Shown: positions 5,406 through 24,503, numbered from the stretch's first letter. The stretch: 64,000 bases of DNA from Patescibacteria group bacterium (GCA_041660005.1 JBAZXG010000001.1:158565-222564), one strand, 5' to 3'. Notes: generated by a model from the letters alone, not told the origin. Numbers and translations are program-made.

Positions 5406-5712
5406 TAAATTTGCTTATATTTAGTTGACGAAACACTTTTAAAAAAATTACACCGAGAGGCGCAGTATTCGATATATGTCAAAAACTTTGAAAACCCTGG
5501 CCACGTATGAATGTTCCGACTGTACTGCGGTCAATGAAAGGCCGAAGCTTCGTATGGAAAATGTCTATGACCACCAGTACTCCCTCCGAAACAGATTTAT
5601 CCACGATTACCATGCAGAGCAGCGGTTGCAATTTATAGTCAACTCTGTATAGTGTCAAAACTTATCGCCTTGCAAGTCAGAAACGCGAAACGCGAAAGTG
5701 GGAGAGGAAAAA

Positions 5713-6180
5713 ATGAGGAAGAGTGAAGCATCGAGAGGGTCTGTGGTGGTGGCTGTACTTGTGGTGGTTGCGGTAGCCGTTATCGCGGTTTTTTTCAGGC
5801 ATTGGACCGAGGTCATCATTCTAGAGCCGAGTCTTCTAGACGGAATGAGCTGTCAACGGGCAGTGGTGGCACTCGGCGACGACTTCGAGGACCGGCGGCC
5901 GGATTGTCCGGAGATGAGCGAACTCGATCGTTGGGCCGCTTTGGTCATAACGTGCCGAGCGAACGAAGCAAAAGCAACGCAACTACCGGACATCTGCCAA
6001 CGAAACCGCAACGGGCGCACTGAGTACGTCCGCCTCTACTACGGAGAGGCACTCAGTGGCGACTGGGACGACTGTAAACTCAGGCGAAACTGGCAATGTA
6101 GGGATCTCAGCAACAAGGAGTGCCTCAAGGCCGGTTTTGATGTCATGGAGGCACCACCAGAATGGTGCCCCACGCTCTAG
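5713..6180 (+). CDS. Hypothetical membrane-anchored Cys-rich protein in GC-rich islet
   Basis: GGAGAGGAAAAA-ATG SD; TM helix VVVAVLVVVAVAVIAVFF then 8 Cys; local GC clearly above backbone. Confidence 0.45.
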   Translation: MRKSEASRGSVVVAVLVVVAVAVIAVFFRHWTEVIILEPSLLDGMSCQRAVVALGDDFEDRRPDCPEMSELDRWAALVITCRANEAKATQLPDICQRNRNGRTEYVRLYYGEALSGDWDDCKLRRNWQCRDLSNKECLKAGFDVMEAPPEWCPTL

Positions 6181-6295
6181 GAGGGCAAGTACAACGAGGG
6201 CGGTCGCACTACCAACAGGTATGTGTGACCGCCCTCGCTTCGTTATTTACATAAACAATTTGAAACGACAGGCATGAATGGGCGTTTTTCTTTCG

Positions 6296-6574
6296 ATGGA
6301 CTATAATTTAAATATGCCCCATGACCTAGAAGTAGCTCCAGGAATTTACCAACACTACAAAGGTGACAAGTACCGGGTTCTTTTTGTCGCCACCAATGCA
6401 ACAAATGAACAAGAAAGAAATAAGGTCGTTGTTTATATTTCACTAAAAGACGGGTCGGTTTACTACCGCGACCTCGGTGAATTTACGGAAATTGTTGAGT
6501 GGCCCGACGGTGGGAGAAAATCTCGGTTCATAGGTGCCTACACTTCTTTTAAAAAACGAGTTCGGAAACAGTAA
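6296..6574 (+). CDS. DUF1653 family protein
   Basis: PGIYQHYKGDKYRVLFVA...VVVYISL...SRF matches DUF1653 GIYRHYKG..Y.V core; start ambiguous (6278/6296/6314). Confidence 0.6.
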   Translation: MDYNLNMPHDLEVAPGIYQHYKGDKYRVLFVATNATNEQERNKVVVYISLKDGSVYYRDLGEFTEIVEWPDGGRKSRFIGAYTSFKKRVRKQ

Positions 6575-6631
6575 TTTTTTTGTTTAAAACCTTTCGCGAA
6601 GGGTCTCTGCCCCTCTTTTAACTCCTCGAAC

Positions 6632-6660
6632 TGACACCCTCAGAGAGGGTGCTTTGTCTT
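6632..6660 (+). terminator. Hairpin caccctc-agag-agggtg followed by ctttgtctt
   Basis: 7-bp stem read in sequence, T-rich tail; downstream of DUF1653 gene. Confidence 0.4.
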
Positions 6661-6740
6661 GACTTGTTTTACGGTTTATGAAAATGTACACGCCGGACCT
6701 TCTACTCGCAGGGAGGTACTATTTTGCAAGGAGTGTACAC

Positions 6741-7196
6741 ATGACGACCACATCGAGTGCGCAGCAGGCTTCAGCACCACGAGCGAGACGGCGGTCACTG
6801 ACCGACCACGAAAAGGAGGTCCTTCTCCTGGTCTGCGAAGGACTCACCAACGCGAGAATCGCCTCCAATCTGGGGGTGGGGCGAGAGGCGGTCAGGTCCG
6901 CGCTCAAGCGGATCTTCCGCAAGCTCGGTGCCGGCAACAGGACGAGGGCGGCCGCGCTCTTCGCTCAGCAGGAAGGGGAGCAACGGGACCCTGAACGTCA
7001 GAAGCCGAGACTGACCGCGCGAGAGCTGCAGGTTCTTCGCCTCGTGCGCGACGGACGGACGAACAGCGAGATCGCGACCCTCCTCATGGTTTCCAAGGAA
7101 ACCGTGAAGTCCGAACTCAAGCGCATCTTCCGCAAGGTCGGCGGCAGTAACAGAACGCAGGTGGCGGTACTTCTCACCAGAAACGGCTGGATCTAG
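6741..7196 (+). CDS. Transcriptional regulator consisting of two tandem LuxR/GerE-type HTH domains (GC-rich islet)
   Basis: Two copies of L(T)xxExxVLxLVxxGxTNxxIAxxLxVSxxTVKSxLKRIFRKLG; AAGGAG SD before ATG 6741; ~63% GC. Confidence 0.6.
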   Translation: MTTTSSAQQASAPRARRRSLTDHEKEVLLLVCEGLTNARIASNLGVGREAVRSALKRIFRKLGAGNRTRAAALFAQQEGEQRDPERQKPRLTARELQVLRLVRDGRTNSEIATLLMVSKETVKSELKRIFRKVGGSNRTQVAVLLTRNGWI

Positions 7197-7244
7197 TCCA
7201 GCCCGCCTACGGACCCTAAAAGGGGTCCAACCGATGGCGAGAAC

Positions 7245-7290
7245 AGACGGCGACCGACCCAACCAGTCGGCCGCCGTTTCTCCTTTTTTT
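7245..7290 (+). terminator. Intrinsic terminator after LuxR-type gene
   Basis: gacggcgaccgac-ccaaccag-gtcggccgccgt stem followed by ttctccttttttt. Confidence 0.7.
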
Positions 7291-7362
7291 AAAAACCTCT
7301 GTAAAGGAGTTCAACTGTTTCTAATACTTCGCCGAAGTGGGCAGGTATGTCATAATTAAAAT

Positions 7363-7752
7363 ATGCCTGAACACAAAAACCCATCTGACCAAACGAAGAA
7401 GGATGCCCTTCAACGTTTTGTTGAAACACTGAAACCTCACCGTGATGTATACAATGCAATCGCCGGTATTAAGCTTGCTATACTCATGCTAGACGGAGTG
7501 GACCCGGTAGACGACGATAAACTACAACATGCACTTGACCCTGTTAAGACATGGCAAGAATATTTTGCGGCGCATGGACCAGCACAAGGCTTTGCTCTGG
7601 GAAACAGGGAAGACGACGACCCAACGATGGTTACTGCATTTAACGACTTAGTACATCAATTCAACGCCGAGCGCGAGAGGATAATTCAGGAAAGAGATTC
7701 TACATCCTTAATTGCGTACGACGAAAAGTTCCGCAAGATTATCTATGAATAG
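7363..7752 (+). CDS. Hypothetical protein (129 aa)
   Basis: ORF with backbone-like composition; no motif recognised. Confidence 0.4.
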   Translation: MPEHKNPSDQTKKDALQRFVETLKPHRDVYNAIAGIKLAILMLDGVDPVDDDKLQHALDPVKTWQEYFAAHGPAQGFALGNREDDDPTMVTAFNDLVHQFNAERERIIQERDSTSLIAYDEKFRKIIYE

Positions 7753-7834
7753 AATAAGTTATAGCTATAGTAATGGTCATGCTGTTTCATAAAGACTCTG
7801 CAAAAACTTTAATAGTAAAGACTTATTTATCACT

Positions 7835-8629
7835 ATGAAACTACAACCACTGAAAAAACTTATTAATCTTACAGGCAAGACCGCGATAGTTACTGGCGGC
7901 GCCATGGGAATTGGTCTCGGCATTGCACGACGTCTTGCTGAAGCGGGAGCGAATGTGGTCATTGCTGACTACAACGAAAAGGCCGGCAAAGCAAGCACCA
8001 AAGAGCTACAAACAAACGGATGGATTGCTGCTTTTATAAAAACCGACGTTAGTCACGAACGAGATGTTCAAGCGGCAGTTAACTTTACTGTTGCCACTTA
8101 TGGACATATCGACATCCTTGTGAACAATGCCGGCATCTACCCGACGATCCCTGTATTAGAAATGAAGCTCGATGATTTTAAGAAAGTAATCGAGGTAAAC
8201 TTGCAAAGCGTTTTTCTGTTCACTAAGGCCGCAGCAAAAATTATGATTAAACAAAGCAACGGTGGAAAAATCATTAATATTACTTCGGTCGACGCACTTC
8301 ACCCATCATCTGTCGGTCTCGCGACCTATGACGCATCAAAACATGGACTCTGGGGTTTTACTAAAAATTCCGCACTTGAGTTTGCGCCGTATAACATCCA
8401 GGTAAACGCTATTGCCCCAGGAGGCATCACCACACCAGGAACAGGAGCCGGCTTGCCGGTAAATCCCAGCATGACAGCGCTCCTTAAAAAATTTAAAGAA
8501 AAAATTCCCATGAAGCGCATGGGTGAACCCGATGATATTGGGAAAGTCGCCTTGTTTTTGGCTACTGATCTTTCGAGCTACATGACCGGGTCGCAGGTGG
8601 TGGTAGACGGCGGTGTTTTGCTCACGTGA
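7835..8629 (+). CDS. SDR family oxidoreductase (FabG-like 3-oxoacyl reductase family)
   Basis: TGGAMGIGLGIARRL Rossmann motif, NNAG, YDASKHGLWGFTK catalytic YxxxK. Confidence 0.85.
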   Translation: MKLQPLKKLINLTGKTAIVTGGAMGIGLGIARRLAEAGANVVIADYNEKAGKASTKELQTNGWIAAFIKTDVSHERDVQAAVNFTVATYGHIDILVNNAGIYPTIPVLEMKLDDFKKVIEVNLQSVFLFTKAAAKIMIKQSNGGKIINITSVDALHPSSVGLATYDASKHGLWGFTKNSALEFAPYNIQVNAIAPGGITTPGTGAGLPVNPSMTALLKKFKEKIPMKRMGEPDDIGKVALFLATDLSSYMTGSQVVVDGGVLLT

Positions 8630-8895
8630 ATTGAAATTGCTATCAACACGAAGTTTGTGTTACCATGAAATTTCTAGTTATCTCATACCCCTGTGGAAAG
8701 TAACAAAGTTACTATCGACGACCTTGCTGTAATGATCAATAAAGGTTTTGAAAAGGTTGAAAAGGACATCGACGAACTTAAAAAAGGACAGGATCGCATT
8801 GAGCTACGCCTTGATAATGTTGCTTATCGATAAAGTCGGGTACAACCTTACTGAAACTTATCAAAGACAGAGGTTTTGCAAAGTGAGGTAGGTTA

Positions 8896-10191
8896 TTAAT
8901 TTTTTTTCACCCGTTCGACCACCGCCACTTTCACTGTGCGCAAAGTAGTTTCTTTAACAATCAGTTGAATATCTTTATGTTCTACAACGTCCCCTATTTT
9001 AGGAAACCGACCAAGACGATCGAGAATAAATCCTGACACGGTTGTAAAGTCCTCATTTTCTGGCAGCTCAGACTGAAGATGCTTGTTAAAATCGATAATG
9101 GAAACGTCGCCAACGACAAGAAGTTTGTCCCCTTCCTGTTTAATCGCCCCACTTACTTCGTCAGTTTCGTCCGTAATGTCTCCAACAATCTCCTCTAAAA
9201 TGTCCTCTAATGTGACCAGCCCCTCGATTTCTCCATGCTCGTCGGCAACCAATGCCATGTGCGCTTTTTTTCTTTGAATTCTTTGCAGCACCTGACCAAT
9301 TTTCATCGTACCTGGAACAAAATAGGGCGGTAACAAAAACTCACGAAGCTGAAGTCCTTGCATCCCCTTTTCAAACTTTGGAAGCAAACGTTTCGTATAA
9401 AGAATACCAATGATGTTGTTCATGGTTCCCTCGTAGATTGGTACTCTTGAGTAACCCGACTCAATGGCTTTATGAACAACATCTCGCGCGGGCTCGTTAA
9501 TATCAAAAGCAACCATGTGCGTACGCGGTATCATAATTTGCCGTACGCTCAAGTCAGAAAAGTCAAAAACGTTTTCTATTATATTATGTTCATGCGATTC
9601 AATGGTACCGGCGCGACGGCTTTCTAAAAGAAGTGCTCTGATTTCCTCTTCTGAAAGTTTAGTCTCAGTGAAGGTTGTTGAGTCGTGAAATAATTTCAAA
9701 AGTAAATTGGAAGAGACGTTCAATGCTTTAATCGGCAACGCATTAATTTTTGATAACCACCAAACAGGATAAGCAGCGAGAAGCGCTAAAGTTTCCGCAT
9801 AACGTAACCCCAAAGACTTCGGCACCAACTCCCCAATGACGATGTTAACGTAGGCAACCACAACAACAACGGTTGTAAAACTAATGGCGTAAGCGTGTTC
9901 AGCAACAAAAGGAATATCGAACCTACTAAGGAAACTAGCCAACTCACGGGCGATACTCGAACCAGCAAAAGCCGAAGCGGCAATGGTAATAACAGAGATG
10001 CCTATTTGAATGGTGGCAAACATGCGCTCTGGTTTTTGATACAATTGTTGAATGATCTGCGCGCGTCGATTGCCTTTCTTAACCAAACCGGCTAGATGGG
10101 TTTTCCGTACGGCAATAAAGGCAATTTCACTCATGGAGAAAAAACCATTGAGCAAAGTCAACAAAAAAACGATAGCAATTTCTGAAATCAT
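8896..10191 (-). CDS. HlyC/CorC family transporter (DUF21/CNNM + CBS pair + CorC_HlyC C-terminal domain)
   Basis: N-terminus MISEIAIVFLLTLLNGFFSMSEIAF typical of DUF21; 431 aa architecture. Confidence 0.85.
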   Translation of the reverse strand: MISEIAIVFLLTLLNGFFSMSEIAFIAVRKTHLAGLVKKGNRRAQIIQQLYQKPERMFATIQIGISVITIAASAFAGSSIARELASFLSRFDIPFVAEHAYAISFTTVVVVVAYVNIVIGELVPKSLGLRYAETLALLAAYPVWWLSKINALPIKALNVSSNLLLKLFHDSTTFTETKLSEEEIRALLLESRRAGTIESHEHNIIENVFDFSDLSVRQIMIPRTHMVAFDINEPARDVVHKAIESGYSRVPIYEGTMNNIIGILYTKRLLPKFEKGMQGLQLREFLLPPYFVPGTMKIGQVLQRIQRKKAHMALVADEHGEIEGLVTLEDILEEIVGDITDETDEVSGAIKQEGDKLLVVGDVSIIDFNKHLQSELPENEDFTTVSGFILDRLGRFPKIGDVVEHKDIQLIVKETTLRTVKVAVVERVKKN

Positions 10192-10595
10192 TTTGGCTCT
10201 CTAGCGGATAAACAAAGAGATTATTAGTATAGCGGCTAAAGTTGCCAATTGGCAAAGACATAAAGAAACGCTCACTATTCTTTTACGCCTCCTTTAAACG
10301 CTCTTTTGCATCATTGCCGGCGGCGTAAAAGCACGATAAAGTACAAAAACTGGAAAAATCAATCGTAGAATAACCCTTGTAAAACTTGAATGAACATGCT
10401 ACATTGGGTCGTTATCTTAAAAAGATAACAAATAAGCTATAAAAGAAATGAAGAGCTGTTGGGATATTTCTTCTCTCGAAAGTAATCAGAGGAGAACGAT
10501 TTCCCAACCGCTTTTTGGGAGAGAAGCGGTAATGGAACGTTCATTTTAGGATTGTAGCCCCGGCTCCGAGGTAAATCGGGCAAAGGAGGAGAAGG

Positions 10596-11195
10596 GTGTT
10601 AGAAACAGTTTGGGCTTTTGTTCAGATCATTGGGATCGACGTGATCATGGCAGCCGACAATGCTGCGATAGTAGCAATGATCGCAATGACAGTGCCGCTA
10701 ACTGAGCAACGTCGTGTCCTTGTATTCGGCACAGGACTAGCGGTAGCTCTGCGAGTAGGGCTGGCCGTTTTCGCGTCGTTCTTGATGCAATATGTTGGGT
10801 TAACCTTAGCCGGTGGATTTATCCTCTTGTACTTCGCACACGGAATGTACAAAGAGATGTGCTGGCACGGTACTACCCACGGCGGTACGAAATATAGGTA
10901 CAAGTCATTTCGACACGCCGTGCTGCAAATAGGGATTGCGGACACAGTGATGAGCATCGACAACGTCCTCGCGGTCTCGGGAATAGCCAACGGTCACGTT
11001 CAAATGACCGCATTCGGGCTACTCCTATCCGTGGCTCTCATGGGAGCTGCCGCCGGGTTTCTCGCGCACACGATCCAGCGCTACCGGTGGATAGCGTGGG
11101 TCGGCCTTGCCATGGTCGGATGGGTTGCCCTTTCAATGATTTGGAAGGGTGGCATCGAAGTCGTCACAGCCGCTGCGGCAGCAACAATGCGCTAG
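10596..11195 (+). CDS. TerC family integral membrane protein (YjbE/YkoY-like)
   Basis: Duplicated DNA..V/ DNVLAV motifs (IMAADNAAIVAMIA; SIDNVLAVSGIA), multi-TM. Confidence 0.7.
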   Translation: MLETVWAFVQIIGIDVIMAADNAAIVAMIAMTVPLTEQRRVLVFGTGLAVALRVGLAVFASFLMQYVGLTLAGGFILLYFAHGMYKEMCWHGTTHGGTKYRYKSFRHAVLQIGIADTVMSIDNVLAVSGIANGHVQMTAFGLLLSVALMGAAAGFLAHTIQRYRWIAWVGLAMVGWVALSMIWKGGIEVVTAAAAATMR

Positions 11196-11621
11196 ACCTC
11201 GTAACCGAACTCGGAACGGTTAACTCTCCGAGCGCCAACTAGATAGGCGCAAGTATCTGGTAGGAGGACGCACTTGGAACGCGTCCCCTCTTCTGAATTC
11301 ACTATCACTCAATGATAGCGGAATCAGAAAAGGGCATTATGACAACTTGAGTAAAATATTTTTCAAAAAATTAAGCGGCTCTTTACCCTCGACAAAAACC
11401 CTAAAATACTGTAGGTTGCAATCGATCTGTTCGTTATAGACAGGGTCGAAATTCTTTGGCAGAGTAATTTGCCATGACTTTCGTCCCCGACTTTCTGAAT
11501 AGATCCCTGGGGCAATAGGGGCACCGCCAGGGCTCCCCGTCTGGTTTCTGCCAGACAAACTATTGCCCTTACAGGTTCAACGCGGGGAAGGAAAAGTGAC
11601 ACTCCTTCCCCCATTCAATTA

Positions 11622-11873
11622 TTGATTAACGTATTTAGTATGACTGAACGTGCCACAGAAATAGAAATAGTGGCTACAACAGTGACTGAGGTGATAGAAG
11701 CAGTTCTTTCCCGCATTCCGAACTATAAAATAGACCTAATTGACGAACCTATTGGAGAAGAAGCAACTTCACTAAACGATTTTTTAGAAAACAATAATGA
11801 CGGTAGTGAATGGACAGATCCAAAAGGTTTTAAAATAAACATTGCTGGTGGAGAATATAAAATTTCATTTTGA
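11622..11873 (+). CDS. Hypothetical small acidic protein (83 aa)
   Basis: ORF only; weak. Confidence 0.3.
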   Translation: MINVFSMTERATEIEIVATTVTEVIEAVLSRIPNYKIDLIDEPIGEEATSLNDFLENNNDGSEWTDPKGFKINIAGGEYKISF

Positions 11874-12115
11874 AAACGTTAACAAAAGACGACCCCCGTG
11901 TACAGCTGTAGTTACAACCATCCCGTGTGTTTCTCTTTGTGCGTAACGAAATGTTGTTTGAAATTGCATCATCTTCACCACTACAGCGACTGACCACCGA
12001 TCACTCGGTTACGCTCGACTTAAAAACTCCTCGCGACAACTGATCCCTTGCTTTGATTGAAAATGAAAACAATGTACATTACACTTCAATACATTGCATG
12101 ATTTTCAGCATAACT

Positions 12116-13339: not shown

Positions 13340-14019
13340 TAGAGGTTAATAACTTAACGCGGACTTACCCAGGCAAAGTACCGACACTGGCGTTGCGAGG
13401 TGTTACGTTCACCATTAACGAAGGAGAATTTGTCGCTATCATGGGAAAAAGTGGTTCTGGAAAATCAACACTGCTGCATCAGCTCGCGCTTCTGGATATA
13501 CCCACAAGTGGATCGCTAACGATTGGCGGCAACGATGTCATGGCTTTAAGCGAACACCAAAAAACTCTTTTTCGACTCATGAACATTGGCTACGTTTTTC
13601 AAGAATATGCGATTTTGACCGAACTGACAACCCTCGAAAACGTTGCTTTGCCGCTGCGCGTTCGTGGAGGGCTGTCACGTAAAGATGCTCATAACGAGGC
13701 CTCGCAACTACTCGATCGTGTAGGACTTAGCAACCGTTTACATCATTACCCGGGCGAACTATCGGGCGGCGAACAGCAACGTGTGGCGATTGCACGGTCA
13801 CTCATTAACAAACCGCGCATACTACTAGCGGACGAACCATGTGCAAATCTCGATACCGCATCTAGCGAAACGGTTCTTCGCTTGTTGCGAGATCTCAATA
13901 AAAACCTTGGTCAGACTATTGTAATGATCAGCCACGAGCCTGAAGATCGCGAATGGGTTGATAGAATTTTATGGCTGAAAGACGGGCTTATTGATCATAT
14001 TGACAAAAAAGCATCGTAA
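13330..14019 (+). CDS. ABC transporter ATP-binding protein (MacB/LolD-like)
   Basis: Walker A GKSGSGKST, signature LSGGEQQRVAIARSL, Walker B ILLADEP; overlaps permease by 10 nt. Confidence 0.9.
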   Translation: MGMIEVNNLTRTYPGKVPTLALRGVTFTINEGEFVAIMGKSGSGKSTLLHQLALLDIPTSGSLTIGGNDVMALSEHQKTLFRLMNIGYVFQEYAILTELTTLENVALPLRVRGGLSRKDAHNEASQLLDRVGLSNRLHHYPGELSGGEQQRVAIARSLINKPRILLADEPCANLDTASSETVLRLLRDLNKNLGQTIVMISHEPEDREWVDRILWLKDGLIDHIDKKAS

Positions 14020-14098
14020 ATTGCTCCACGAAAAAGCATCTGCTTCTCTCAAAGCCACCCATTGCCAAGACCACAAAAATCACCTAGCATGTCGAGAC

Positions 14099-15562: not shown

Positions 15563-15953
15563 AAGGTATTGACCCCATAGAAAGCCCTAGACTCTTAAGT
15601 TCGCCCACGGGCGAGTTGAGAAAGACGGCTCGGCAGAGCTCCGCAAGCAGCAATTTACACCATTTTGTGCGTACGCACAAAATGGTGTAAAAATAATAAA
15701 ATACAAAATCACTAAAAGTAATCAGCGACCACGCCCCAAGGGGACGGGATGTGTAATGGTGATTCCACTTCGCCGAGTCAAACTCACCTCCTTCGCTTAA
15801 GCTTCGGACGGTCAAGGACCTCCTTCGCTCCCACTTCGTATCAAACTACGGCGGGACACAGCAATGCTACGGACGGTCAAGGACCTCCTTTGCTTAAGCT
15901 TCGGACGGTCAAGGAGCTACGCGGGATATTTTTGCTCACCCCCAACAATTGCA
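15563..15953. repeat. Composite repeat-rich intergenic region (palindrome + B-module + three copies of acggacggtcaagga(c/g)c units)
   Basis: Direct reading: ctcctt(c/t)gcttaagcttcggacggtcaagga twice, acggacggtcaagga three times; shares motifs with 20088-20193 and 60930-61013. Confidence 0.6.
15656..15689. repeat. 34-bp perfect palindrome TACACCATTTTGTGCGTACGCACAAAATGGTGTA (copy 1 of 3)
   Basis: Sequence equals its reverse complement; flanked by T-run and A-run. Confidence 0.85.
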
Positions 15954-17039
15954 CTAACGTTTTTTAAGCGTATCGCTTGATATCACGCGGTCGTAACGGC
16001 GACCGTTGAAAATTATTGTGGGAATTTTAATGGTACGAATTTGTTGCTCAACGACCGCACGGTGTTCTTTAATGATTTGAACCACTTTATCCGAATGTGC
16101 CATTTCAGTAACGCGCGCAATGGTCGCTTCATCATAGCCAAAAGTCGGCAACATTTCTTGCAGCTTATGTTCGGCTTCAGTTTCGCTGTAGAGCGTATTA
16201 AACTTTACCTGCATCTGAACTCCGTCACCGTCTGCACCCAGCAATATTGTCTCAAGTAGTTTCCAGTCTGCGGGCGTCGTCCCATCAAGCTTCGAGGGTG
16301 GAACGAGTTTTACTGCTTCGAGATATTGCGCAATGAGATATGAGTTGGCAAATTTGTAACCACTCTTTTGCTGCGGATCAGGAATAGGATAAGCAATATA
16401 GGTTAGGTTGTGCGTATGCTCAAAGTCAGCTGCTTTAATATTATTTAATAACGAAGCGCAATAATGGCATCCCGGATCGAGAATTTCTAGCGCCGTTATT
16501 TTTTGATTATCAAAAGGGGCATAGTACGTGCTCTCCGCCGTCGTGAAGTCAGCAGCATTCCAGCTCCGCAGCCGATTCGGCACAAGACTCGTAGTGTTCG
16601 CTACGTTCACAAACGGCCGAGCCGCCCACGATGCCAGTTGTCCTTGCTGAAACGATTCAAACAAATCAAGATTCTGTGAAGGAACGGCACAGGCTTCTCC
16701 TGCTAACGAGCAAGACTCTGCAGCCTGCGGATTGCAGGTATCATAAACAAAGAGGTTAAGCCCCGAAACCGCAACATATATAAGACTCCAAATGGATAAA
16801 CCAACAAAGACGAGGGCGAGCCAATTTGACCACCTTAAGAAAAAACGTGCGAGGAGTGGTGAACGTCGAACCAGTTTACCGGCAATGATACCTTTAATTT
16901 CTTCGTCAAAATGAATATCGCACGGCCGAAAAGTAAGGCGGCGGCCAACACAATACCAAGCTTTTTTAGCAAGCCCCCGATAATAGGCAGAGAATATACC
17001 CAAAATGAGAAAGACGATAAAAGCGGCGATGCAAAACAT
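15954..17039 (-). CDS. Membrane-anchored thiol:disulfide oxidoreductase, DsbA-like thioredoxin-fold domain (CHYC) fused to N-terminal 2-TM Cys-containing domain
   Basis: LDPGCHYCASLL CxxC motif in C-terminal half; two TM helices and paired Cys N-terminally. Confidence 0.6.
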   Translation of the reverse strand: MFCIAAFIVFLILGIFSAYYRGLAKKAWYCVGRRLTFRPCDIHFDEEIKGIIAGKLVRRSPLLARFFLRWSNWLALVFVGLSIWSLIYVAVSGLNLFVYDTCNPQAAESCSLAGEACAVPSQNLDLFESFQQGQLASWAARPFVNVANTTSLVPNRLRSWNAADFTTAESTYYAPFDNQKITALEILDPGCHYCASLLNNIKAADFEHTHNLTYIAYPIPDPQQKSGYKFANSYLIAQYLEAVKLVPPSKLDGTTPADWKLLETILLGADGDGVQMQVKFNTLYSETEAEHKLQEMLPTFGYDEATIARVTEMAHSDKVVQIIKEHRAVVEQQIRTIKIPTIIFNGRRYDRVISSDTLKKR

Positions 17040-17042
17040 ATT

Positions 17043-18254
17043 CTAAAATGCTTGAAGGGTTGATGAAATAATTTTTACAACACGAGAAACATCGGCATGA
17101 GTATTTTGAAGTCCAAGAGACAAACGTAGAAGTGGAGGCAATTTTAGTACTTTTTGCAAATAATAATGACAGCAGAAATATCCGCTCCGCGCCATAACCC
17201 CTTGTTCTGATAGCATGAGCGAGAGGCGATGCGCGTCAGCGTTTGGAAAAGAAAAAGCTACCACAGGACTCGCACTGCTATTCACAAGATTAATCGCCGG
17301 AATTGTTTTTAGCTCATCCAAAAAAGTTTGAGACAGCTCGCGCACATGCACATCAATTGCTTTATTACTCGGACGATATTTCGATAGCCACTCAAGAGCA
17401 GCAGAAAAACCAATGATGCCAGCCCAATTTTGCAGCCCCGGCTCAAGCCGAGTATGAAGTTCACCCTGTTCGTCAATGAGTGAATACGCAAGCTCGGAAA
17501 CGTCGCTCACCATCCCGCCGCCAATAAAACTGATATCGAGATTCTCGAGTAAACTTTTTTTGAAAACAATAAAGCCAAGACTCGGCCCGTACATTTTATG
17601 CGAAGAACCGAAGAGACAATCAAAATCAACGTTGGCAAGGAGTGATCGGTGATACACCATAGACTGCGCTGCGTCGAGGAAAAGAAGCCCACCCGCGGCG
17701 TGCGTATCGCGAGCAAGGTCCGCAACGTTCACACACTGTCGCCCATCAACGTTTGATGTCGTGCTAACAAGAACGACGCTCCGTTCAAGTTGATTTTTAT
17801 TGTATGAAAGTGCGCCATCAGCAGCTCTCTCAAGCACGAGCCGAGACAACCCATACTTTTTTGCCACCGTAATCGTCGGCAGAAAAACAGAGTTATGCTC
17901 AATTTGGGAAGTAACAATATTCTTGAACCGGTCAACCTTGAGCTGCTGCAATACCAGGTTGATACCGTACGTTGTATTTAAAGTAAAAGCGACAGCATAT
18001 TCATTCGCCGATTTTCCAAGAGCGTCCAATAACCGACGTCGGGCAATGCTAACCGCATCGTCAACCCGTCTCCCCCACTCATATTTTACGCGACCACCAC
18101 AGGCGTTGTAATTCTTGTAATAATCAATCTCGGCGTCAATAACTTCCTGCGGCCGCAGTGTTTGGCACGCCGAATCAAAATATAATTGTGTCTCGTCAAG
18201 ATATGCAAAACTCGATGTTTCTGTATGTTGTCGAGAACGAGTGCCGAAAAGCAT
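17043..18254 (-). CDS. Class V aminotransferase-fold PLP enzyme (cysteine desulfurase-like)
   Basis: YFDSACQT (cf. YLDSAATT) and SSHKMYGP PLP-lysine motif. Confidence 0.7.
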   Translation of the reverse strand: MLFGTRSRQHTETSSFAYLDETQLYFDSACQTLRPQEVIDAEIDYYKNYNACGGRVKYEWGRRVDDAVSIARRRLLDALGKSANEYAVAFTLNTTYGINLVLQQLKVDRFKNIVTSQIEHNSVFLPTITVAKKYGLSRLVLERAADGALSYNKNQLERSVVLVSTTSNVDGRQCVNVADLARDTHAAGGLLFLDAAQSMVYHRSLLANVDFDCLFGSSHKMYGPSLGFIVFKKSLLENLDISFIGGGMVSDVSELAYSLIDEQGELHTRLEPGLQNWAGIIGFSAALEWLSKYRPSNKAIDVHVRELSQTFLDELKTIPAINLVNSSASPVVAFSFPNADAHRLSLMLSEQGVMARSGYFCCHYYLQKVLKLPPLLRLSLGLQNTHADVSRVVKIISSTLQAF

Positions 18255-18471
18255 TTGCGAAAATCAATGATATCTTACATTGAGCATATCAAGAATTGAC
18301 CATTATTTCAAGCATATTTGATTACATAATACTGTAGTCTTTTGTTGTTTTTTGTTGTCGCAATAGTGTGCAATGTTTGCATAAATTTATACCTTTTAGA
18401 AAGACGACGTCCGGGCGGCTGCAGTATTGCAACCGTCCGGACGCATTTCGACTGTGGTGGGGTTTTCGGCC

Positions 18472-18720
18472 TCAACGGCAGGGATGGATACCGTGCTGCC
18501 GGAGCATTCTGCGCATCCACCCGATGGTGGATGGCTTCTGTTTTCGACGGGCAAGAGAATCTCGCCTACTTCCGCCCATCGTAGCGTTGATGTTGTGCTT
18601 CTGGCACTGCTCGACAAGCTTCTCGCGCGCCGTCGCAAGCTCGCGCTCTCTTTTCGTCGGGACGCCTACCCTCGGCTGGTAGAATACTCTTCCTCTTGAT
18701 CCAAAAATTGTCGAACTCAT
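18472..18720 (-). CDS. Hypothetical small basic protein in GC-rich islet
   Basis: AGGAGGA SD 7 nt before ATG; Arg/Lys-rich 82 aa; GC-rich; followed by inverted repeat 18406-18447. Confidence 0.3.
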   Translation of the reverse strand: MSSTIFGSRGRVFYQPRVGVPTKRERELATAREKLVEQCQKHNINATMGGSRRDSLARRKQKPSTIGWMRRMLRQHGIHPCR

Positions 18721-18882
18721 CTGGTCCTCCTGCGACCACAAACGTTACGTACCCCAAAATCGACGACGTGACTTTAACATAGACCCTTTCAACCTACAAC
18801 TTAAACTATGCTGGTTCTTATGGTACACTAATTAAATAGATACTTTGTTATAGTCTAGAGAATATTACCTTTTTATAAATTT

Positions 18883-19413
18883 ATGCCAAATCACCTTTCA
18901 TTATTACATTCCCTCTTTGGTGACACTGAAGAGCCAAAAAGAAGGAAGATACTACGCTCCATCAAAGCTAAAGCTGACTCCAAAAGAACAGTATCAGAAA
19001 AAACCGCCGATTGGATGACGGCTCATTTTGGGAGTATAACTTTTTTACTACTGAACTTTTTTTTGTTTATCGTTTGGTTAGTTATTAATTCTGAACGAAC
19101 AAAAGGACTTCCCAACTTTGACCCCTTCCCATTTAACCTACTAACAACAATCGTTTCACTAGAAGCAATTATTCTTGCTATTTTTGTTCTGATATCGCAA
19201 AACCGAAGTATGAAAGTGGACGACCTAAGAGAAGAGGTTCATTTACAGATAAATCTCATTGCTGAAAAAGAAGTAACAAAAGTAATGAAAATGATGGTTC
19301 TATTGTTAAAAAAACATGATATAGATGTATCGGAAGATCCTGAACTAAAAAAGCTTCTTAAGCCCATCAGTGAGGAAGAGATAGAGCGGATATTAGAAAA
19401 AGAAATTTTGTAA
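18883..19413 (+). CDS. DUF1003 family membrane protein
   Basis: DWMTAHFGSITFLLLNFFLFIVWLVINS...FDPFPFNLLTTIVSLEAIILAIFVLISQNR pattern. Confidence 0.55.
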   Translation: MPNHLSLLHSLFGDTEEPKRRKILRSIKAKADSKRTVSEKTADWMTAHFGSITFLLLNFFLFIVWLVINSERTKGLPNFDPFPFNLLTTIVSLEAIILAIFVLISQNRSMKVDDLREEVHLQINLIAEKEVTKVMKMMVLLLKKHDIDVSEDPELKKLLKPISEEEIERILEKEIL

Positions 19414-19517
19414 ACCATCTGTATTGCGTAAGGCGTACTGCGCAAGGATGATATTACACTTGCTATTTATCGCTATTTAGCATAGTATCAAGCAACTCAC
19501 CACTCATATAAAAATCT

Positions 19518-19931
19518 ATGAACTCACCATTTCAACGTAATACTCGAGGAAAACGCAGCGACGGGGACAGATTTAGTAGCGATAAGCCCTGGAAAAAGAG
19601 CTTTGGCGACCGCGACGGCGCACGTCCGGCACTACACCCTGCTGTCTGCAGTAAGTGCGGCCAAGACTGTGTTGTGCCTTTTAAACCAAACGGCAAAAAA
19701 CCAATTTTCTGCAGCAATTGTTTCAAAAAAGAAGAGGGCGCAGACGACAATCGATTTAGTCGACCGAGTACCGGGCGACCATATCGTGATGAAGATCGCG
19801 GCGGTAGAGAAGATTCTTTAGGGTGGCAACTGAAAACGATTAATAGCAAGCTCGACACTATTTTGAACCTGCTAGAATCTGACACCTACGAAGAACCTAA
19901 GCTTGATAAACCAAAATTCAGGAAACGTTAA
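19518..19931 (+). CDS. Hypothetical zinc-ribbon protein (CxxC-x17-CxxC) with Arg/Gly-rich flanks
   Basis: CSKCGQDC...CSNCFKKEEG; basic RGG-like low complexity. Confidence 0.5.
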   Translation: MNSPFQRNTRGKRSDGDRFSSDKPWKKSFGDRDGARPALHPAVCSKCGQDCVVPFKPNGKKPIFCSNCFKKEEGADDNRFSRPSTGRPYRDEDRGGREDSLGWQLKTINSKLDTILNLLESDTYEEPKLDKPKFRKR

Positions 19932-20015
19932 AGCGACTGAAGACTCCTGAAACGACCCCCGAGTTTTCGGTTTGTCGGCGTTTCTGAAAATTGCTTAACT
20001 TTCGCGTTACCGTTT

Positions 20016-20049
20016 TACACCATTTTGTGCGTGCGCACAAAATGGTGTA
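20016..20049. repeat. 34-bp palindrome copy 2 (centre gtgcgc variant)
   Basis: tacaccattttgtgcgtgcgcacaaaatggtgta. Confidence 0.85.
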
Positions 20050-20087
20050 AAAGTTAAAAGTCAATATAATCACGACAAGCTGACGGA

Positions 20088-20193
20088 GTGTAATGGTAAT
20101 CCCACTTCGCCGAGTCAAACTCGGCTACGAGGGATATTTTTGTCTTCTATATTGTAACCTCGCGGCAAGCCGACGAGGTATTGGGGACAAAAA
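20088..20193. repeat. Mosaic repeat: B-module (gtgtaatggtaatcccacttcgccgagtcaaactc) + C-module double hairpin (tttttgtc..cctcg-cggcaagccga-cgagg..gacaaaaa)
   Basis: B-module also at 15751-15785; C-module near-identical at 33521-33577. Confidence 0.75.
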
Positions 20194-20290
20194 TAAAAAA
20201 CTCGCGGAGCACCGCGAGAGTTAGCTGGCTGTCGAACGTACTGGATATACAGTCCAGAGTTCGACAGCCCGCCGCTGCGAAGGAAGCTTC

Positions 20291-20593
20291 CTACCCTGCC
20301 AGGAGTCCCTCCTTGAATTCCTCGAACGGGATAGCTTCCCCTTCGGGTTCTGCGTAATCGGGGTCAACGTTGTGCCGAGCACGGAAGACCGCAGTTGCAC
20401 CCGGAACCCATCCGGCTCGCTCTTCGACGGCGGTTTTCAGGGCCGCCCGAGAATGCACGTAGCATTCCCAAAGAGCAGCCTGTTTCAGAAACCGTCGACC
20501 ACCCATCCTGGGGTTGTCCCTGCTCAGGGCAACAACCCCGTCTCCAGTGACCGGTCCGGAGGTCACTATGTATCCTCGGCCGCTTTCATCCAC
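20291..20593 (-). CDS. Hypothetical protein in GC-rich islet (100 aa)
   Basis: Natural-looking translation on minus strand; downstream 10-bp stem with 22-nt loop (20228-20268) then tight terminator 20200-20218 + U-run. Confidence 0.35.
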   Translation of the reverse strand: MDESGRGYIVTSGPVTGDGVVALSRDNPRMGGRRFLKQAALWECYVHSRAALKTAVEERAGWVPGATAVFRARHNVDPDYAEPEGEAIPFEEFKEGLLAG

Positions 20594-21004
20594 TCCACTT
20601 ACCTCGCTTGGTTATTCTGTCCTGCTGGTCAAACCAGACGCGAACAGTGGGCACAATGGTATCCTTATAAAAGGAAATAATCAAGGAACTCCTTTTGATT
20701 TATTATTACTTTGGAAATAACACATTTGAACCTTGCCCAGTCAGACTGGGCGGAGGTTGTCTATTATATTTTTCTTCACAAACTGTTAGTACCATAGCCT
20801 AGACTATGGTACTAGATGAAAAATGGGACTTCTAGGTAAAAAATATAATATACTATTCGATATTCCAACATTCTTGAGAATGTGAGAATGACAGAAATAA
20901 GTCACTCCACAGATTTCGCTTGCAGTACCAACCCCTACAAAATCAGCAAGTCTTAGTGACTTTTATACAAAAAGTATTATACTAGCATTAAGTTACTATA
21001 GTTT

Positions 21005-21397
21005 ATGCACGACCAATATACCCCTGACGACCCTAAGGTTACAAAAAGCAGTAAGGAAGTGCGACCGCCAGCAAGTATGGATGAGGGTCAGGAAATAGGC
21101 AAAAGTGAAGTGCCAACGAAAGTTCTTAACATGGCGGAAATAATGCTAGGTAAGTTGGGTGGGCAGACTGACGGTCGTAATGTTACTATTACTCGCTGCA
21201 AAGTTAGCATTGATCAAACAAACAACAGTTGTTTTTATTCGATCAGGGGAGCAATTCACACCGAACAATTAAATACACGAACTGACAGTTCCGAACCTCA
21301 GTTTGATCGACCAACCGAAGCTGAAGTCATGATTACAACATATCCTCATGAAGTTATTGAGACGAAAGTTGTCAGTACGAAGATAGTGCACCAATAA
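21005..21397 (+). CDS. Hypothetical protein (130 aa)
   Basis: ORF ending right before strong terminator. Confidence 0.45.
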   Translation: MHDQYTPDDPKVTKSSKEVRPPASMDEGQEIGKSEVPTKVLNMAEIMLGKLGGQTDGRNVTITRCKVSIDQTNNSCFYSIRGAIHTEQLNTRTDSSEPQFDRPTEAEVMITTYPHEVIETKVVSTKIVHQ

Positions 21398-21430
21398 AAA
21401 ATACCTCGGCTCGCGCCGAGGTATTTTTCA
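21396..21430. terminator. Bidirectional intrinsic terminator shared by convergent genes
   Basis: aaaatacctcggc-tcgc-gccgaggtatttt perfect 13-bp stem with A-run and T-run. Confidence 0.8.
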
Positions 21431-21438
21431 AGAATTTA

Positions 21439-22062
21439 CTAATCTACCCGTTTGACTTTTTGCGCCGCATCAAAAACTAAATTCGCCGTTTTCCAATTGA
21501 GGTTCTTAATATAATCATCAATATAGGTCTTTCGATCTGATCCGTAATCAATAAAGTAAGCATGCTCATAGACGTCTAACGTCAGCACAGGAATAGCACC
21601 CCAAACGCCACCCTGATTGTGCGCGTCGCCAGTGTAGACTTTGAGCTCGGCTTCATGCGTGTCCCAGGCAAGAACTGCCCAACCGCGTGCTGCCATACCG
21701 CAGGCTTTAAAGTAGCTAAGAAAATTTTCAAGTGAACCAAACTTTTCTTCAAGTGCAGTAATGAGCGAACCGTCAGGAACACCATCACCACCGAGCACAT
21801 TGAAGTAATACTCATGAAGGTACACGCCATTTGTGGCGAACGTCTCGCCGTCTTTCAAGGCGCGCAGTTCAGAAAATGTCTGGTTGGCACCGGTTAAATC
21901 TTTTTTACCCTGCTCAAACGCTTCTAGACTTTCGGCGATCTCGTTCTTCTTCTTAACGTAACCCATGTAGAGCACATCATGGTGCATCGCCATGGTCTTG
22001 TCCGAAATACCTTTCAGTGTCGCTTTAAAAGGAAGCGGCTTACCTGTATATTGTTTTGCCAT
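21439..22062 (-). CDS. sodA: Fe/Mn superoxide dismutase
   Basis: DVYEHAYFIDYGSDRKTYIDDY and WDTHEAEL motifs; 207 aa. Confidence 0.9.
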   Translation of the reverse strand: MAKQYTGKPLPFKATLKGISDKTMAMHHDVLYMGYVKKKNEIAESLEAFEQGKKDLTGANQTFSELRALKDGETFATNGVYLHEYYFNVLGGDGVPDGSLITALEEKFGSLENFLSYFKACGMAARGWAVLAWDTHEAELKVYTGDAHNQGGVWGAIPVLTLDVYEHAYFIDYGSDRKTYIDDYIKNLNWKTANLVFDAAQKVKRVD

Positions 22063-22163
22063 AAAATATAAATAATTTAATAACTTCTATTGAACATCCA
22101 GTATACGCCCGCTTAAAAAAGTAGGCAAAACTACCCACGGCTCTTTTGCCGACAAAACAATTT

Positions 22164-23363
22164 CTAAATTCGGACAAATTTAATTATCTCGGGTAATGCT
22201 TTGAGTACAAGGTCAATATCTTCTTTGGTAGTACTCTCGCCAAACGTAAAACGAACACTGCCGGCAATAGACGCTTTGTCGAGTCCTATGGCTTCAAGTA
22301 CGTGCGACGGCTCCCCTTTTGCACCAGCGCACGCTGCTCCTGTGCCAGCGTAAATTCCCTGCTCGCTCAAATACACAATGAGTCCTTCAGCGTCAACTCC
22401 GGGAAGACACACGTTGACGTTGTTCGGCAAACGCAGTGTTGCATGACCGTTTACCGTACTGCCAGGAATGACAGCAAGAATACCATTAGTAAAGTAATCA
22501 CGAAGAGACGTAAGACAAAGAATCTTTGCCTCGTGGTCTCTGCGCGCCAGCGTTAACGCCGCGGCTAACCCCACAATTGCAGGAACATTTTCAGTGCCAG
22601 CCACGAGACCGTGCTGTTGCCCGCCGCCATAAATAAGCGGCGCAAGTGTAATGCCACGTCGCACGTAAAGTGCCCCAACCCCCTTAGGGCCATAAAGCTT
22701 AGCGGCGTTCAAAGTCAATAAATCAACCCCTAGCTTTTCAACTGCCAGTGGTAAAAACGCGGCGGCCTGACAGGCATCGGTATGAAAATAAACAGGATGG
22801 AGACCTTGAGTAGTACGTTCTCGATTTACACGTTTCATCAATTTTCCGATTTCAACAATTGGCTCAATAACGCCAATTTCATTGTTGGCGTACATGACAG
22901 AGACAAGAACTGTTTCTGGAACAATCGCGGCAACAATAGCAGCAGGATCAATCCGGCCTTCACGGTCAACAGGTACGCTCGTAACACGCGCATCTTTGTC
23001 TTGAACAAGCGCACGCAACGGTTCTCTCACTGCATCGTGCTCAATAGTCGAAGTAACAACGTGGGGCACTGGCTGATGACTTGCGCGAACAGTGCCAAGA
23101 ACGGCCAGGTTGTCACTCGCTGTCCCGCTAGGAGTAAAGATGATTTCGTCTGAATGCGCGCCAAGTATTTCGGCAACAGCGCGCGCTGCTGCATCAATAA
23201 CTACACGACTCTGCTTTCCTAAACGGTGAAGGCTCGATGGGTTGCCATAATACTCGTCGTAATAAGGTGCCATGACCATGGCCACCTCAGGAGCGACCGG
23301 GGTCGCTGCCGCGTAATCAAGATAGATATTCGGCTCTTTCGCCTTTTTCTTAAAAAATTGCAT
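22164..23363 (-). CDS. Cysteine desulfurase, NifS/IscS type (class V aminotransferase)
   Basis: YLDYAAATPV, LNAAKLYGPKGVGALYVRRG PLP-Lys region, C-terminal active-site Cys loop GTGAACAG. Confidence 0.85.
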   Translation of the reverse strand: MQFFKKKAKEPNIYLDYAAATPVAPEVAMVMAPYYDEYYGNPSSLHRLGKQSRVVIDAAARAVAEILGAHSDEIIFTPSGTASDNLAVLGTVRASHQPVPHVVTSTIEHDAVREPLRALVQDKDARVTSVPVDREGRIDPAAIVAAIVPETVLVSVMYANNEIGVIEPIVEIGKLMKRVNRERTTQGLHPVYFHTDACQAAAFLPLAVEKLGVDLLTLNAAKLYGPKGVGALYVRRGITLAPLIYGGGQQHGLVAGTENVPAIVGLAAALTLARRDHEAKILCLTSLRDYFTNGILAVIPGSTVNGHATLRLPNNVNVCLPGVDAEGLIVYLSEQGIYAGTGAACAGAKGEPSHVLEAIGLDKASIAGSVRFTFGESTTKEDIDLVLKALPEIIKFVRI

Positions 23364-23503
23364 ATACGTTAATTGTACCCATGAACTATAAAGTAAGCTA
23401 TGGATTGTTTTACGTCAAAGACATTACATAAAAATCGGATTGACTTTTCATAATGTCTGAGATATTCTATCCAGTCCTAACCAAGGACAGGAGGAATCGA
23501 CCA

Positions 23504-23719
23504 ATGGCCGACGAAAACGCCCTTCTTTTCGCAGAGGAAGGGAGAAAGAGGATCCAACGCGCCATCACAGCACAAGCGGGTCGCGAGACTCACCTCGCCT
23601 GTGAGCGAGGTTTCGTCGATACTGAGACAGGTATCGGCGTAAGCGATACTGACATTCTCGAGGTACTCGAACGCGAGTGGCTTGATCTCCAGGTGATCCT
23701 GTCCACTCCTGCCGAGTAG
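23504..23719 (+). CDS. Hypothetical small protein (71 aa) in GC-rich cassette, C-terminus ..STPAE
   Basis: AGGACAGGAGGA SD 7 nt upstream of ATG; GC ~55%. Confidence 0.4.
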   Translation: MADENALLFAEEGRKRIQRAITAQAGRETHLACERGFVDTETGIGVSDTDILEVLEREWLDLQVILSTPAE

Positions 23720-23732
23720 CCGGAGAACCTCC

Positions 23733-23808
23733 GAACGCGCGCGACGAGAAGGGCGGGAAGATTGGCAACGAGCTGATCGACCCGCCCTCGTCTTTTCTAG
23801 CCACTTTT
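23733..23808 (+). repeat. 3' cassette module copy 1: ccgaacgcgcgcgacgagaagggcggg-[23-nt loop]-cccgccctcgtcttttctagc (terminator-like inverted repeat)
   Basis: ~70 nt identical to 24367-24445. Confidence 0.75.
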
Positions 23809-23938
23809 TAATCTTTTATTACTTTTTGAAGCCAAAAAATCTTCTCTAAAAAACCTTCATTTTGAGTACATCACTTAGAATTGACGTTTAAATGCTAAAG
23901 GACTAAGGTACTTCGGCACTACTTCATAGTGGAGTGTG

Positions 23939-24358
23939 ATGAGACAAAGCCGAAACTTTCGGCCAGCACCGGAGGAAACAGTGAAGAAACTCATACGCGA
24001 GATCACGTTCTCGACGAGAGGGGTGAGCGTTTCTCTCGCCAACGGAGGAGTGTTCGGCATTAACTGCCAAACACTCGACATGACGGTCGATGAGGGCGAG
24101 GGCGGTCTAAATAGCGCCGCACTGCCCCACGACAGCGTCATGCGGTTCGAGGTCAGAGATGAGGAGGAGTGCCACTGCGCCGCAGTCGAGGGTCCGACTT
24201 TGGGAGCCCACCTGTACGTGGTGTACAGGGACACGACAGGTGGTGAGCAGGGAATGGACATGGGCCTTTTCCCTTTCCGTGATACGCTTCTGCTCCTCTG
24301 TGAAGTGTTCAACAAGCTCAAGCCCGTCACGACTGTCCCCTCCACTCCGGCCGAGTAA
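23939..24358 (+). CDS. Hypothetical protein (140 aa) in GC-rich cassette, C-terminus ..STPAE
   Basis: TTGACG -35-like at 23881, GGAG before ATG; GC ~63%. Confidence 0.4.
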   Translation: MRQSRNFRPAPEETVKKLIREITFSTRGVSVSLANGGVFGINCQTLDMTVDEGEGGLNSAALPHDSVMRFEVRDEEECHCAAVEGPTLGAHLYVVYRDTTGGEQGMDMGLFPFRDTLLLLCEVFNKLKPVTTVPSTPAE

Positions 24359-24366
24359 CCTGAGGC

Positions 24367-24445
24367 CCGAACGCGCGCGACGAGAAGGGCGGGAAGATTG
24401 GCAACGAGCTGATCGACCCGCCCTCGTCTTTTCTAGCTACTTTTT
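24367..24445 (+). repeat. 3' cassette module copy 2 (identical to 23733-23808)
   Basis: Direct comparison of both copies. Confidence 0.75.
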
Positions 24446-24469
24446 AGTGCTTTCGTATTTTAGAATTTT

Positions 24470-24503
24470 TACACAATTTTGTGCGTACGCACAAAATTGT
24501 GTA
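24470..24503. repeat. 34-bp palindrome copy 3 (tacacaattttgtgcgtacgcacaaaattgtgta)
   Basis: Perfect palindrome; 2 substitutions vs copy 1, compensated symmetrically. Confidence 0.85.

Follow-up and report, generated by a model that had tools for sequence, protein, structure and literature searches.

A stretch of 64,000 nucleotides from a groundwater Patescibacteria metagenome-assembled genome (MAG; GCA_041660005.1, JBAZXG010000001.1:158565-222564), which we call the window, carries short GC-rich islets in a backbone of lower GC content, and these islets are probably individually acquired, lineage-specific accessory genes of an Uhrbacteria-like Patescibacteria genome, imported together with their hairpins from higher-GC genomes into variable intergenic slots. 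An original prediction made from the sequence had described six such islets and proposed a repeated acquisition of foreign minigenes, a proposal that is reasonably supported by the bimodal GC content at third codon positions (GC3), by the slots of islets 3 to 6 in relatives, and by the homologues of the LuxR-type gene of islet 2. Each islet would be a self-contained unit composed of an AT-rich promoter region, a Shine-Dalgarno (SD) sequence, a small open reading frame (ORF), and a GC-rich terminator hairpin. Gene and hairpin would have been imported together from genomes of approximately 60-67% GC, which would explain why the islets stand out as spikes of 55-63% GC in a chromosome of 47.6% GC.

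The sliding-window analysis revealed a non-uniform composition. In windows of 200 nt, GC rose to 0.58-0.66 at the six predicted islet places, compared with a mean of 0.476 over the 64 kb, with peaks of 0.58 at 5.7-6.25 kb, 0.66 at 6.6-7.3 kb, and 0.59-0.61 at 18.4-18.75, 20.1-20.65, 23.45-23.8, and 23.9-24.45 kb. The separation was sharper than had been claimed when codon positions were considered, as islet genes showed a GC content of 54-63% and a GC3 of 0.58-0.76, while the GC3 of backbone genes ranged from 0.23 to 0.52 without overlap. When all likely genes of the 64 kb were ranked, the set with a GC3 of at least 0.56 consisted of the six islets and a gene encoding a TerC/YjbE-family membrane protein at 10596-11195, a seventh islet that the original count of six had missed; the remaining genes reached a maximum of 0.524. 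Within this window, GC3 alone perfectly separates the flexible genes from the backbone, and all seven outliers are situated between 5.7 and 24.5 kb, that is, in 19 kb of the 64. Assembly chimerism was considered and rejected for islets 5 and 6: this strain has been assembled twice independently (Logan SRR18595301 and JGI 3300014208), and both assemblies reproduce the junctions and are 99.95-100% identical to the window across both islets and their flanks. Genes for tRNAs or non-coding RNAs were likewise rejected as the cause of the GC spikes, since the only tRNA of the window is located at 61 kb, leaving the islets without a tRNA target, and searching the islets against Rfam gave no family, whether gathering thresholds or a cut-off of E ≤ 1 were applied.

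The same composition could in principle arise if the islets were native genes, restricted to this lineage and passed on vertically, in which selection (for example, for mRNA structure, codon preference, or amino-acid content) maintains a high GC; relatives would then lack them because of loss or rearrangement. We regard this explanation as unlikely. In the islets, GC3, a measure only slightly affected by the protein sequence, exceeds that of every backbone gene by 0.15-0.35; a high GC is also seen in the 3' hairpins, which are non-coding, and the backbone genes for Sod, SufB, and FtsZ, for which strong expression is expected, show no GC3 bias. In favor of native genes, the relatives are distant enough for slot turnover, and no insertion scars were found in the window.

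The second line of evidence is provided by the conservation of gene order around the islets. Among GTDB species representatives, a search with the 399-aa cysteine desulfurase gave best matches of at most 53% identity, in Candidatus Uhrbacteria, with partial synteny in one locus only (L003), and the Uhrbacteria-labelled loci that were fetched had a GC content of 49-62%. Two closer genomes, retrieved from a large protein database, were used for comparison, namely Candidatus Uhrbacteria CG10_big_fil_rev_8_21_14_0_10_48_11 (relative 1; 66% identity in the desulfurase, 48.5% GC) and another Patescibacteria MAG, Uhrbacteria-like, with 58% identity and 48% GC (relative 2). The window from 34235 to 13991 is collinear with relative 1 (L084, 1 to 15560), with flanking proteins 54-86% identical, and the order from 34.2 to 14.0 kb, shared by both relatives, comprises HtrA, a release factor (RF), ComEC, the suf operon, the cysteine desulfurase, Sod, a zinc-finger protein, and ABC-F. 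DNA similarity to the relatives ends at the gene ends, and the contents of the slots in between differ. Between the desulfurase gene and sufB, where the window bears islets 5 and 6, a 158-aa ORF of ordinary GC with no relation to them is found in relative 1 and a 134-aa ORF on the opposite strand in relative 2. Between the Sod and zinc-finger genes, a 130-aa ORF and islet 4 in the window correspond to unrelated ORFs of 91, 56, and 87 aa in relative 1, two of them of approximately 55% GC, and the slot from the zinc-finger gene to ABC-F measures 3.95 kb in the window, including islet 3, against 289 bp in relative 1. With the exception of the LuxR protein, no islet protein gave a tblastn match in 1.45 Mb of fetched loci. 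The backbone is thus conserved while slot contents differ, and the islets therefore sit in variable slots. The comparison of sites that had been proposed as a check yielded a mixed outcome: islets 3 to 6 are absent from the syntenic slots, but these slots mostly carry other genes, and with relatives as distant as these (58-66% identity in the marker), the comparison demonstrates turnover and not a clean empty site.

The third line of evidence concerns the possible donors, and it comes from the regulator encoded in islet 2, which has two GerE/LuxR domains. A HMMER search of 1.8 billion representatives with the LuxR protein recovered no full-length homologue of at least 50% identity. In contrast, small proteins with a single GerE domain, 57-70% identical to either domain of the islet 2 protein, were retrieved by the exhaustive HMMER search. 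In three contigs of 65-67% GC (L093, L096, and L097), the genes encoding these proteins match the local composition (63-65% GC, GC3 0.81-0.84) and are followed by GC hairpins of 14-24 bp without a U tail, in the style of the islet hairpins. In contrast, in two genomes of 42-50% GC (L094 and L089, the latter from relative 1), the GerE homologue forms an islet of 57-59% GC at loci unrelated to that in the window. This pattern fits a repeated import from a high-GC gene pool, because at 60-70% amino-acid identity the synonymous sites of long residents should have equilibrated, and it points to a family of small regulators of the GerE type whose genes repeatedly form compositional islets across several genomes of low GC. 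A GerE homologue that is GC-rich in three low-GC genomes could also mean a constraint intrinsic to the gene, as selection on native genes would have it, but the homologue occupies an unrelated locus in each of these genomes.

Further observations were made on these GerE loci and on comparable loci. The best-scoring relatives of the double-GerE protein (P0132-P0145) are giant proteins (2,800-7,700 aa), each of which contains as many as 16 GerE-like stretches, an unusual poly-HTH (helix-turn-helix) architecture. The high-GC contigs L093 and L098 are 82% identical across the mraZ-PBP cluster, and upstream of mraZ one of them carries DUF1003 and a small GerE gene that the other lacks, so the GerE gene is variably placed in high-GC genomes too. 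The GerE locus of relative 1 (L089, 6170-12905) contains several more hypothetical genes of 57-64% GC along with a bAvd-family gene and looks like another flexible region. In a Patescibacteria contig of 48% GC (L054), an islet of 65-68% GC at 5443-6193 encodes a secreted-looking protein of 181 aa directly after a tRNA-Thr; GC-rich single-ORF islets are also found in other Patescibacteria loci (for example, L054 and L089).

Several points weigh against an individual acquisition of the islets. The relatives offered no true empty site, so that loss or rapid turnover in them is indistinguishable here from gain, and the synteny comparison covered the slots of islets 3 to 6 only. A donor-like homologue was found for the LuxR gene only, in the contigs of 65-67% GC. 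No flanking direct repeats or target-site duplications were detected above shuffled controls, except for a module shared by islets 5 and 6 (module M), which is found around islet 6. Finally, the terminator function and the promoter use assigned to the islets are predictions from the sequence.

As for the likely route, foreign DNA would have been taken up and then joined to the chromosome by homologous recombination, or by homology-facilitated illegitimate recombination, in the flanking conserved genes, and such recombination would swap slot contents without repeats or an element-encoded recombinase. A gene for ComEC, involved in DNA uptake, is encoded at 29512-31026. Chromosomal hotspots of horizontal gene transfer (HGT) are an existing concept, and the piecemeal HGT into variable intergenic slots proposed here is a kind of event already known in Patescibacteria. 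Genomes of this phylum have been reported to contain hundreds of genomic islands and individually transferred genes, transcription regulators included, mostly exchanged within the phylum (PMC12455944). The islets resemble these elements in their atypical composition, their location between core genes whose order is kept in relatives, the swapped slot contents, the predominance of family-less proteins accompanied by a regulator, and the lack of mobility genes; unlike the usual islands, the units in the window consist of one gene and, at 0.3-0.6 kb, are smaller. The current understanding is unchanged, given that islands and single transferred genes are already documented in Patescibacteria (PMC12455944). 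What the window adds is a clear small-scale case in which a streamlined genome of the Candidate Phyla Radiation (CPR)/Patescibacteria would gain and replace single accessory genes without visible mobile-element machinery, and it suggests that imported genes bring donor-style terminator hairpins along.

The clustering of the seven outliers in 19 kb could alternatively mean that a single larger mobile element, or a small number of them (a prophage, an integrative element, or a plasmid), entered the region of 5.7-24.5 kb, was later broken up by rearrangement and deletion, and survives in eroded form as the islets. The same region also bears the 3.95-kb block absent from relative 1 and three copies of a 38-nt palindrome, and the LuxR-type regulator matches regulator families in PHROGs. 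An eroded element is nevertheless improbable, since the islets are separated by conserved housekeeping genes whose composition is that of the backbone and whose order matches relative 1, and no structural, replication, or recombinase genes were found by Pfam among 30 ORFs of the window. The islets were also without matches in viral and plasmid collections: zero relatives of the proteins of islets 1, 3, 4, and 5 appeared in IMG/VR protein scans, and blastn of the islets gave nothing against phages and, against plasmids, a single 65-nt match in the region coding for the helix-turn-helix (HTH).

Reading of the sequence confirmed one small gene per islet, with an SD-like motif (AGGAGG, GGAGG, or AAGGAG) at normal spacing in all six, as had been predicted. 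The gene of islet 1 (5713-6180, plus strand; MFA5954090.1, WC817_00955, where WC817_ marks the locus tags of the source MAG) encodes an acidic protein of 155 aa with an N-terminal transmembrane helix and an 8-Cys domain and has a GC content of 56.5% and a GC3 of 0.63. Islet 2 (6659-7196, plus strand; GC 62.7%, GC3 0.76) comprises a leader and a coding sequence at 6741-7196 for a protein of 151 aa and pI 11.6 (MFA5954092.1) with two tandem GerE/LuxR HTH domains, matched in two stretches by Pfam GerE PF00196 (1.2e-28, 99 bits against a cut-off of 23.5). The two GerE domains are products of an internal duplication, the segments 6891-6952 and 7104-7165 sharing 77% nucleotide identity. On the minus strand, the ORF of islet 3 (18472-18720) would encode 82 aa with a pI of 11.8, has a GC3 of 0.66, and is preceded by AGGAGG 6 nt upstream of its ATG, while the gene of islet 4 (20291-20593, GC 60%) encodes an acidic protein of 100 aa (91 aa in the NCBI call, MFA5954107.1). 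On the plus strand, islet 5 (23504-23719; MFA5954111.1) encodes 71 aa, or 88 aa from an upstream ATG at 23453, with the C-terminus ...STPAE, and islet 6 (23936-24358) encodes 140 aa (125 aa in the JGI call, from a GTG at 23981) ending in ...PSTPAE. The proteins of islets 3 to 6 had all been described as basic, which holds for the 82-aa product; the 100-, 71-, and 140-aa proteins are acidic, with a pI of 4.5-5.4. A sigma-70-like site upstream of islet 5 was identified by a promoter scan, and another upstream of islet 6 was read by eye.

Pfam, PHROGs, NCBIfam, and PADLOC returned no family above threshold for five of the six islet proteins (those of islets 1, 3, 4, 5, and 6), and a word-indexed search of 5.8 billion protein clusters gave only a self match for the islet 6 protein. 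Single-sequence AlphaFold2 (AF2) models of islets 6 and 4 reached a predicted local distance difference test (pLDDT) score of 35 and 56, respectively, both too poor for use, and Foldseek with the low-pLDDT islet models found no match at E < 1 in the PDB. The seventh islet gene (10596-11195, plus strand; MFA5954097.1) encodes a protein of 199 aa, with a GC content of 54%, a GC3 of 0.60, and a Pfam TerC match at 3.6e-38. A long, structured-looking leader precedes it at approximately 10440-10595, in which no riboswitch scored above Rfam thresholds, and a hairpin is located downstream at 11281-11336.

It is very improbable that some islets, islet 3 above all, are non-coding and represent structured RNAs or GC-rich relics. 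Whichever start was used (82 or 89 aa), the protein collection contained no match to the product of islet 3, and the case for coding at this islet therefore consists of its SD and its GC3; several ORFs overlap there, and the low-confidence AF2 models of islets 4 and 6 could be taken in the same sense. Against non-coding islets, strong SD sites stand at the correct spacing, GC3 exceeds GC2 in all islet ORFs, the Rfam search was negative even at the permissive E-value, and the LuxR and TerC genes are clearly coding.

A further feature of the islets is the hairpin situated 3' of the genes. The original prediction had placed inverted repeats with an unusually large loop after five of the six; the repeats are present where they had been placed, but the 21-23-nt loops are self-complementary, and RNA folding resolved these structures into long two-tier hairpins with apical loops of 4-7 nt. 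The hairpins begin 14-28 nt downstream of the stop codon and have predicted energies of -28 to -38 kcal/mol (z = -2.3 to -7.7 against shuffles), and six of the eight most stable 56-nt hairpins of the window are islet hairpins. Their stems are unusually long (14-19 bp in two tiers) and nearly perfect, without obvious extrahelical bases, and their ends read GACGAG.../...CTCGTC, CGAGGGCGG.../...CCGCCCTCG, and similar. The hairpin of islet 1 (6195-6237, plus strand), with a near-perfect two-tier stem of 19 bp, a 4-nt loop, and a start 14 nt after the stop, is the most stable 56-nt hairpin of the window (-37.5 kcal/mol, z = -7.7). Islet 2 ends in a conventional terminator, as predicted: its terminator region (7211-7290, plus strand; -40.3 kcal/mol, z = -5.0) is composed of a small hairpin at 7211-7228 followed by a GC hairpin at 7239-7282 and a T7 run. 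On the minus strand, the two-tier hairpin of islet 3 (18408-18443) has a 4-nt apical loop, lies 28 nt after the stop, and folds at -30.4 kcal/mol, while the 3' end of islet 4 (20201-20273) combines a two-tier hairpin at 20223-20273 with an additional canonical intrinsic terminator at 20201-20218, CTCGCGG-tgct-CCGCGAG plus a T-run. T tracts are clear after islets 2, 4, 5, and 6 but weak after islets 1 and 3. The GGGCGG/CCGCCC runs that had been noted in the repeats do occur in the stems of islets 1, 3, and 5/6, but they are a weak signal, as the hexamer has 37 copies across the window. With the exception of the islet 5/6 pair, the hairpins are mutually unrelated in sequence.

Most likely, the islet hairpins behave like transcription terminators, since they lie 14-28 nt after the stops and most of them are followed by T-rich tracts. 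Most likely, too, they would protect the 3' ends of these short mRNAs or stabilize them, and they are not recombination sites. With intrinsic terminators they share the position of a GC hairpin past the stop, the U-rich tracts at islets 2, 4, 5, and 6, and the style of the hairpins found 3' of the GerE homologues in the 65-67% GC contigs; they are unlike them in the length and two tiers of the stems and in the lack of a clear U tract at islets 1 and 3. Long terminator hairpins without a tail have been reported in high-GC bacteria. Hairpin terminators are likewise present 3' of backbone genes of the window (those at 1505-1560 and 21385-21440 are examples), but these are AT-richer and have clear T runs. 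As palindromic elements located 3' of genes, the islet hairpins also resemble repetitive extragenic palindromic (REP) elements, bacterial interspersed mosaic elements (BIMEs), or repeats like miniature inverted-repeat transposable elements (MITEs); unlike these, they are single-copy, unrelated in sequence, and unique apart from the 5/6 pair.

The original prediction had compared the islets to integron cassettes with a common 3' site, following attC logic, while noting that the window held no recognizable integrase or core site. The latter remark was borne out. Integron attC sites are characterized by paired R'' (RYYYAAC) and R' (GTTRRRY) cores bounding an imperfect hairpin of 57-141 nt; a regular-expression search of the 64 kb for the core pair gave three matches on each strand, attributable to chance, none of which lies between 5 and 25 kb. 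No recombinase, integrase, or transposase family was found by Pfam among the 30 window ORFs scanned, and the remaining large ORFs of the window have housekeeping homologues annotated in the relatives, such as suf, comEC, RF, HtrA, and ABC genes. The comparison with attC itself was not supported, given hairpins unrelated except at islets 5 and 6, the lack of cores and of an array, and the presence of promoter-like sites. There is a certain likeness to integron cassettes, in that a small gene, often without a family match, is followed by an imperfect inverted repeat, and in that the adjacent, same-strand islets 5 and 6 have near-identical 3' modules of approximately 115 bp, loosely reminiscent of the homogeneous attC repeats of sedentary chromosomal integrons. 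Unlike such cassettes, the islets in the window come without IntI or attI, are dispersed singly among housekeeping genes on both strands instead of forming a tandem co-oriented array, and have nearly perfect hairpins. An integron-like or novel cassette system, in which the 3' hairpins would serve as single-strand recombination sites for a recombinase encoded elsewhere in the genome, is therefore barely credible, even though the 64 kb analyzed are only part of a contig that measures 245 kb or more: beyond the features just named, module M has just two copies in the searched collections.

Module M, the sequence shared by islets 5 and 6, spans 95-116 nt with 91-93% identity and a 70-nt identical core, so that the module which had been called identical is indeed shared, although full identity is limited to the core. 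Copy 1 (23702-23816, plus strand) contains the last 6 codons and the stop of its gene, a two-tier hairpin at approximately 23746-23794, and a T-rich tail; copy 2 (24341-24453, plus strand) is a direct repeat of it, with 91% identity. The module extends from 18 nt before the stop, across the hairpin, to the T-rich tail; both proteins accordingly have STPAE as their C-terminus, and no similarity between them was found outside the module. A stem-anchored pattern of module M recovered only a 2.2-kb contig of the same strain in JGI metagenomes, a collection in which the host genome is represented via the fragmented assembly of the sample, and nothing in IMG/VR. Module M thus looks like a local 116-bp duplication or a gene conversion by which the 3' end of one neighbor would have been copied to the other and, with two copies only in the searched collections, does not look like a dispersed site. 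There is only a slim chance that it is the joint of an integron-independent cassette-exchange site at which small genes are swapped upstream of the suf operon, with the other hairpins carrying GGGCGG-type stems as diverged sites and the recombinase encoded outside the window.

Regarding other repeats of the window, a 38-nt AT-rich perfect palindrome, TTTACACCATTTTGTGCGTACGCACAAAATGGTGTAAA, is present in three copies (0 expected) at 15654-15692, 20013-20051, and 24468-24504, with a degenerate copy at 16392-16424. The three copies are all located in variable slots: one follows ABC-F, one follows the zinc-finger gene, and one closely precedes sufB, next to islet 6. Among the fetched loci, the palindrome was found in the same-strain contig only. 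It may act as an operator or a bidirectional terminator or represent a REP/MITE-like repeat and, lying outside the islets, fits the class of REP/BIME or MITE-like repeats better than the islet hairpins do. Two of the palindromes are followed by a 35-nt repeat, GTGTAATGGTGATTCCACTTCGCCGAGTCAAACTC, in the segments 15751-15918 and 20088-20140; three imperfect repeats of 32-36 nt (ACCTCCTTCGCTTAAGCTTCGGACGGTCAAGG) come after its first copy, and both segments end in ...CTACGNGGGATATTTTTG. These segments may constitute a small repeated non-coding element.

Some features of the neighboring genes were also recorded. The sufB ORF called mechanically at 24479-26089 (536 aa) begins with a TTG inside the 38-nt palindrome; because the SufB of a relative has 481 aa, the real start is probably located approximately 55 codons downstream, at MPQNEQEII. 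The 3.95-kb block from ABC-F to the zinc-finger gene (15563-19517) encodes proteins of 361 and 403 aa and a DUF1003-like protein of 176 aa in addition to islet 3, and since most of it has a backbone-like GC, we read it as a rearrangement or an older insertion. In relative 2 (L086, 13111-21209; L087, 9450-17452), synteny stops after Sod and EamA, and the region beyond EamA, which contains a type I restriction-modification system, a UvrD helicase, and a large serine recombinase, is likely a mobile defense island. Finally, an ORF of 4217 aa at 39856-52509 on the minus strand is flanked by genes encoding a TSP3-repeat protein and a Big_5-domain protein, and together they look like a cell-surface gene cluster.

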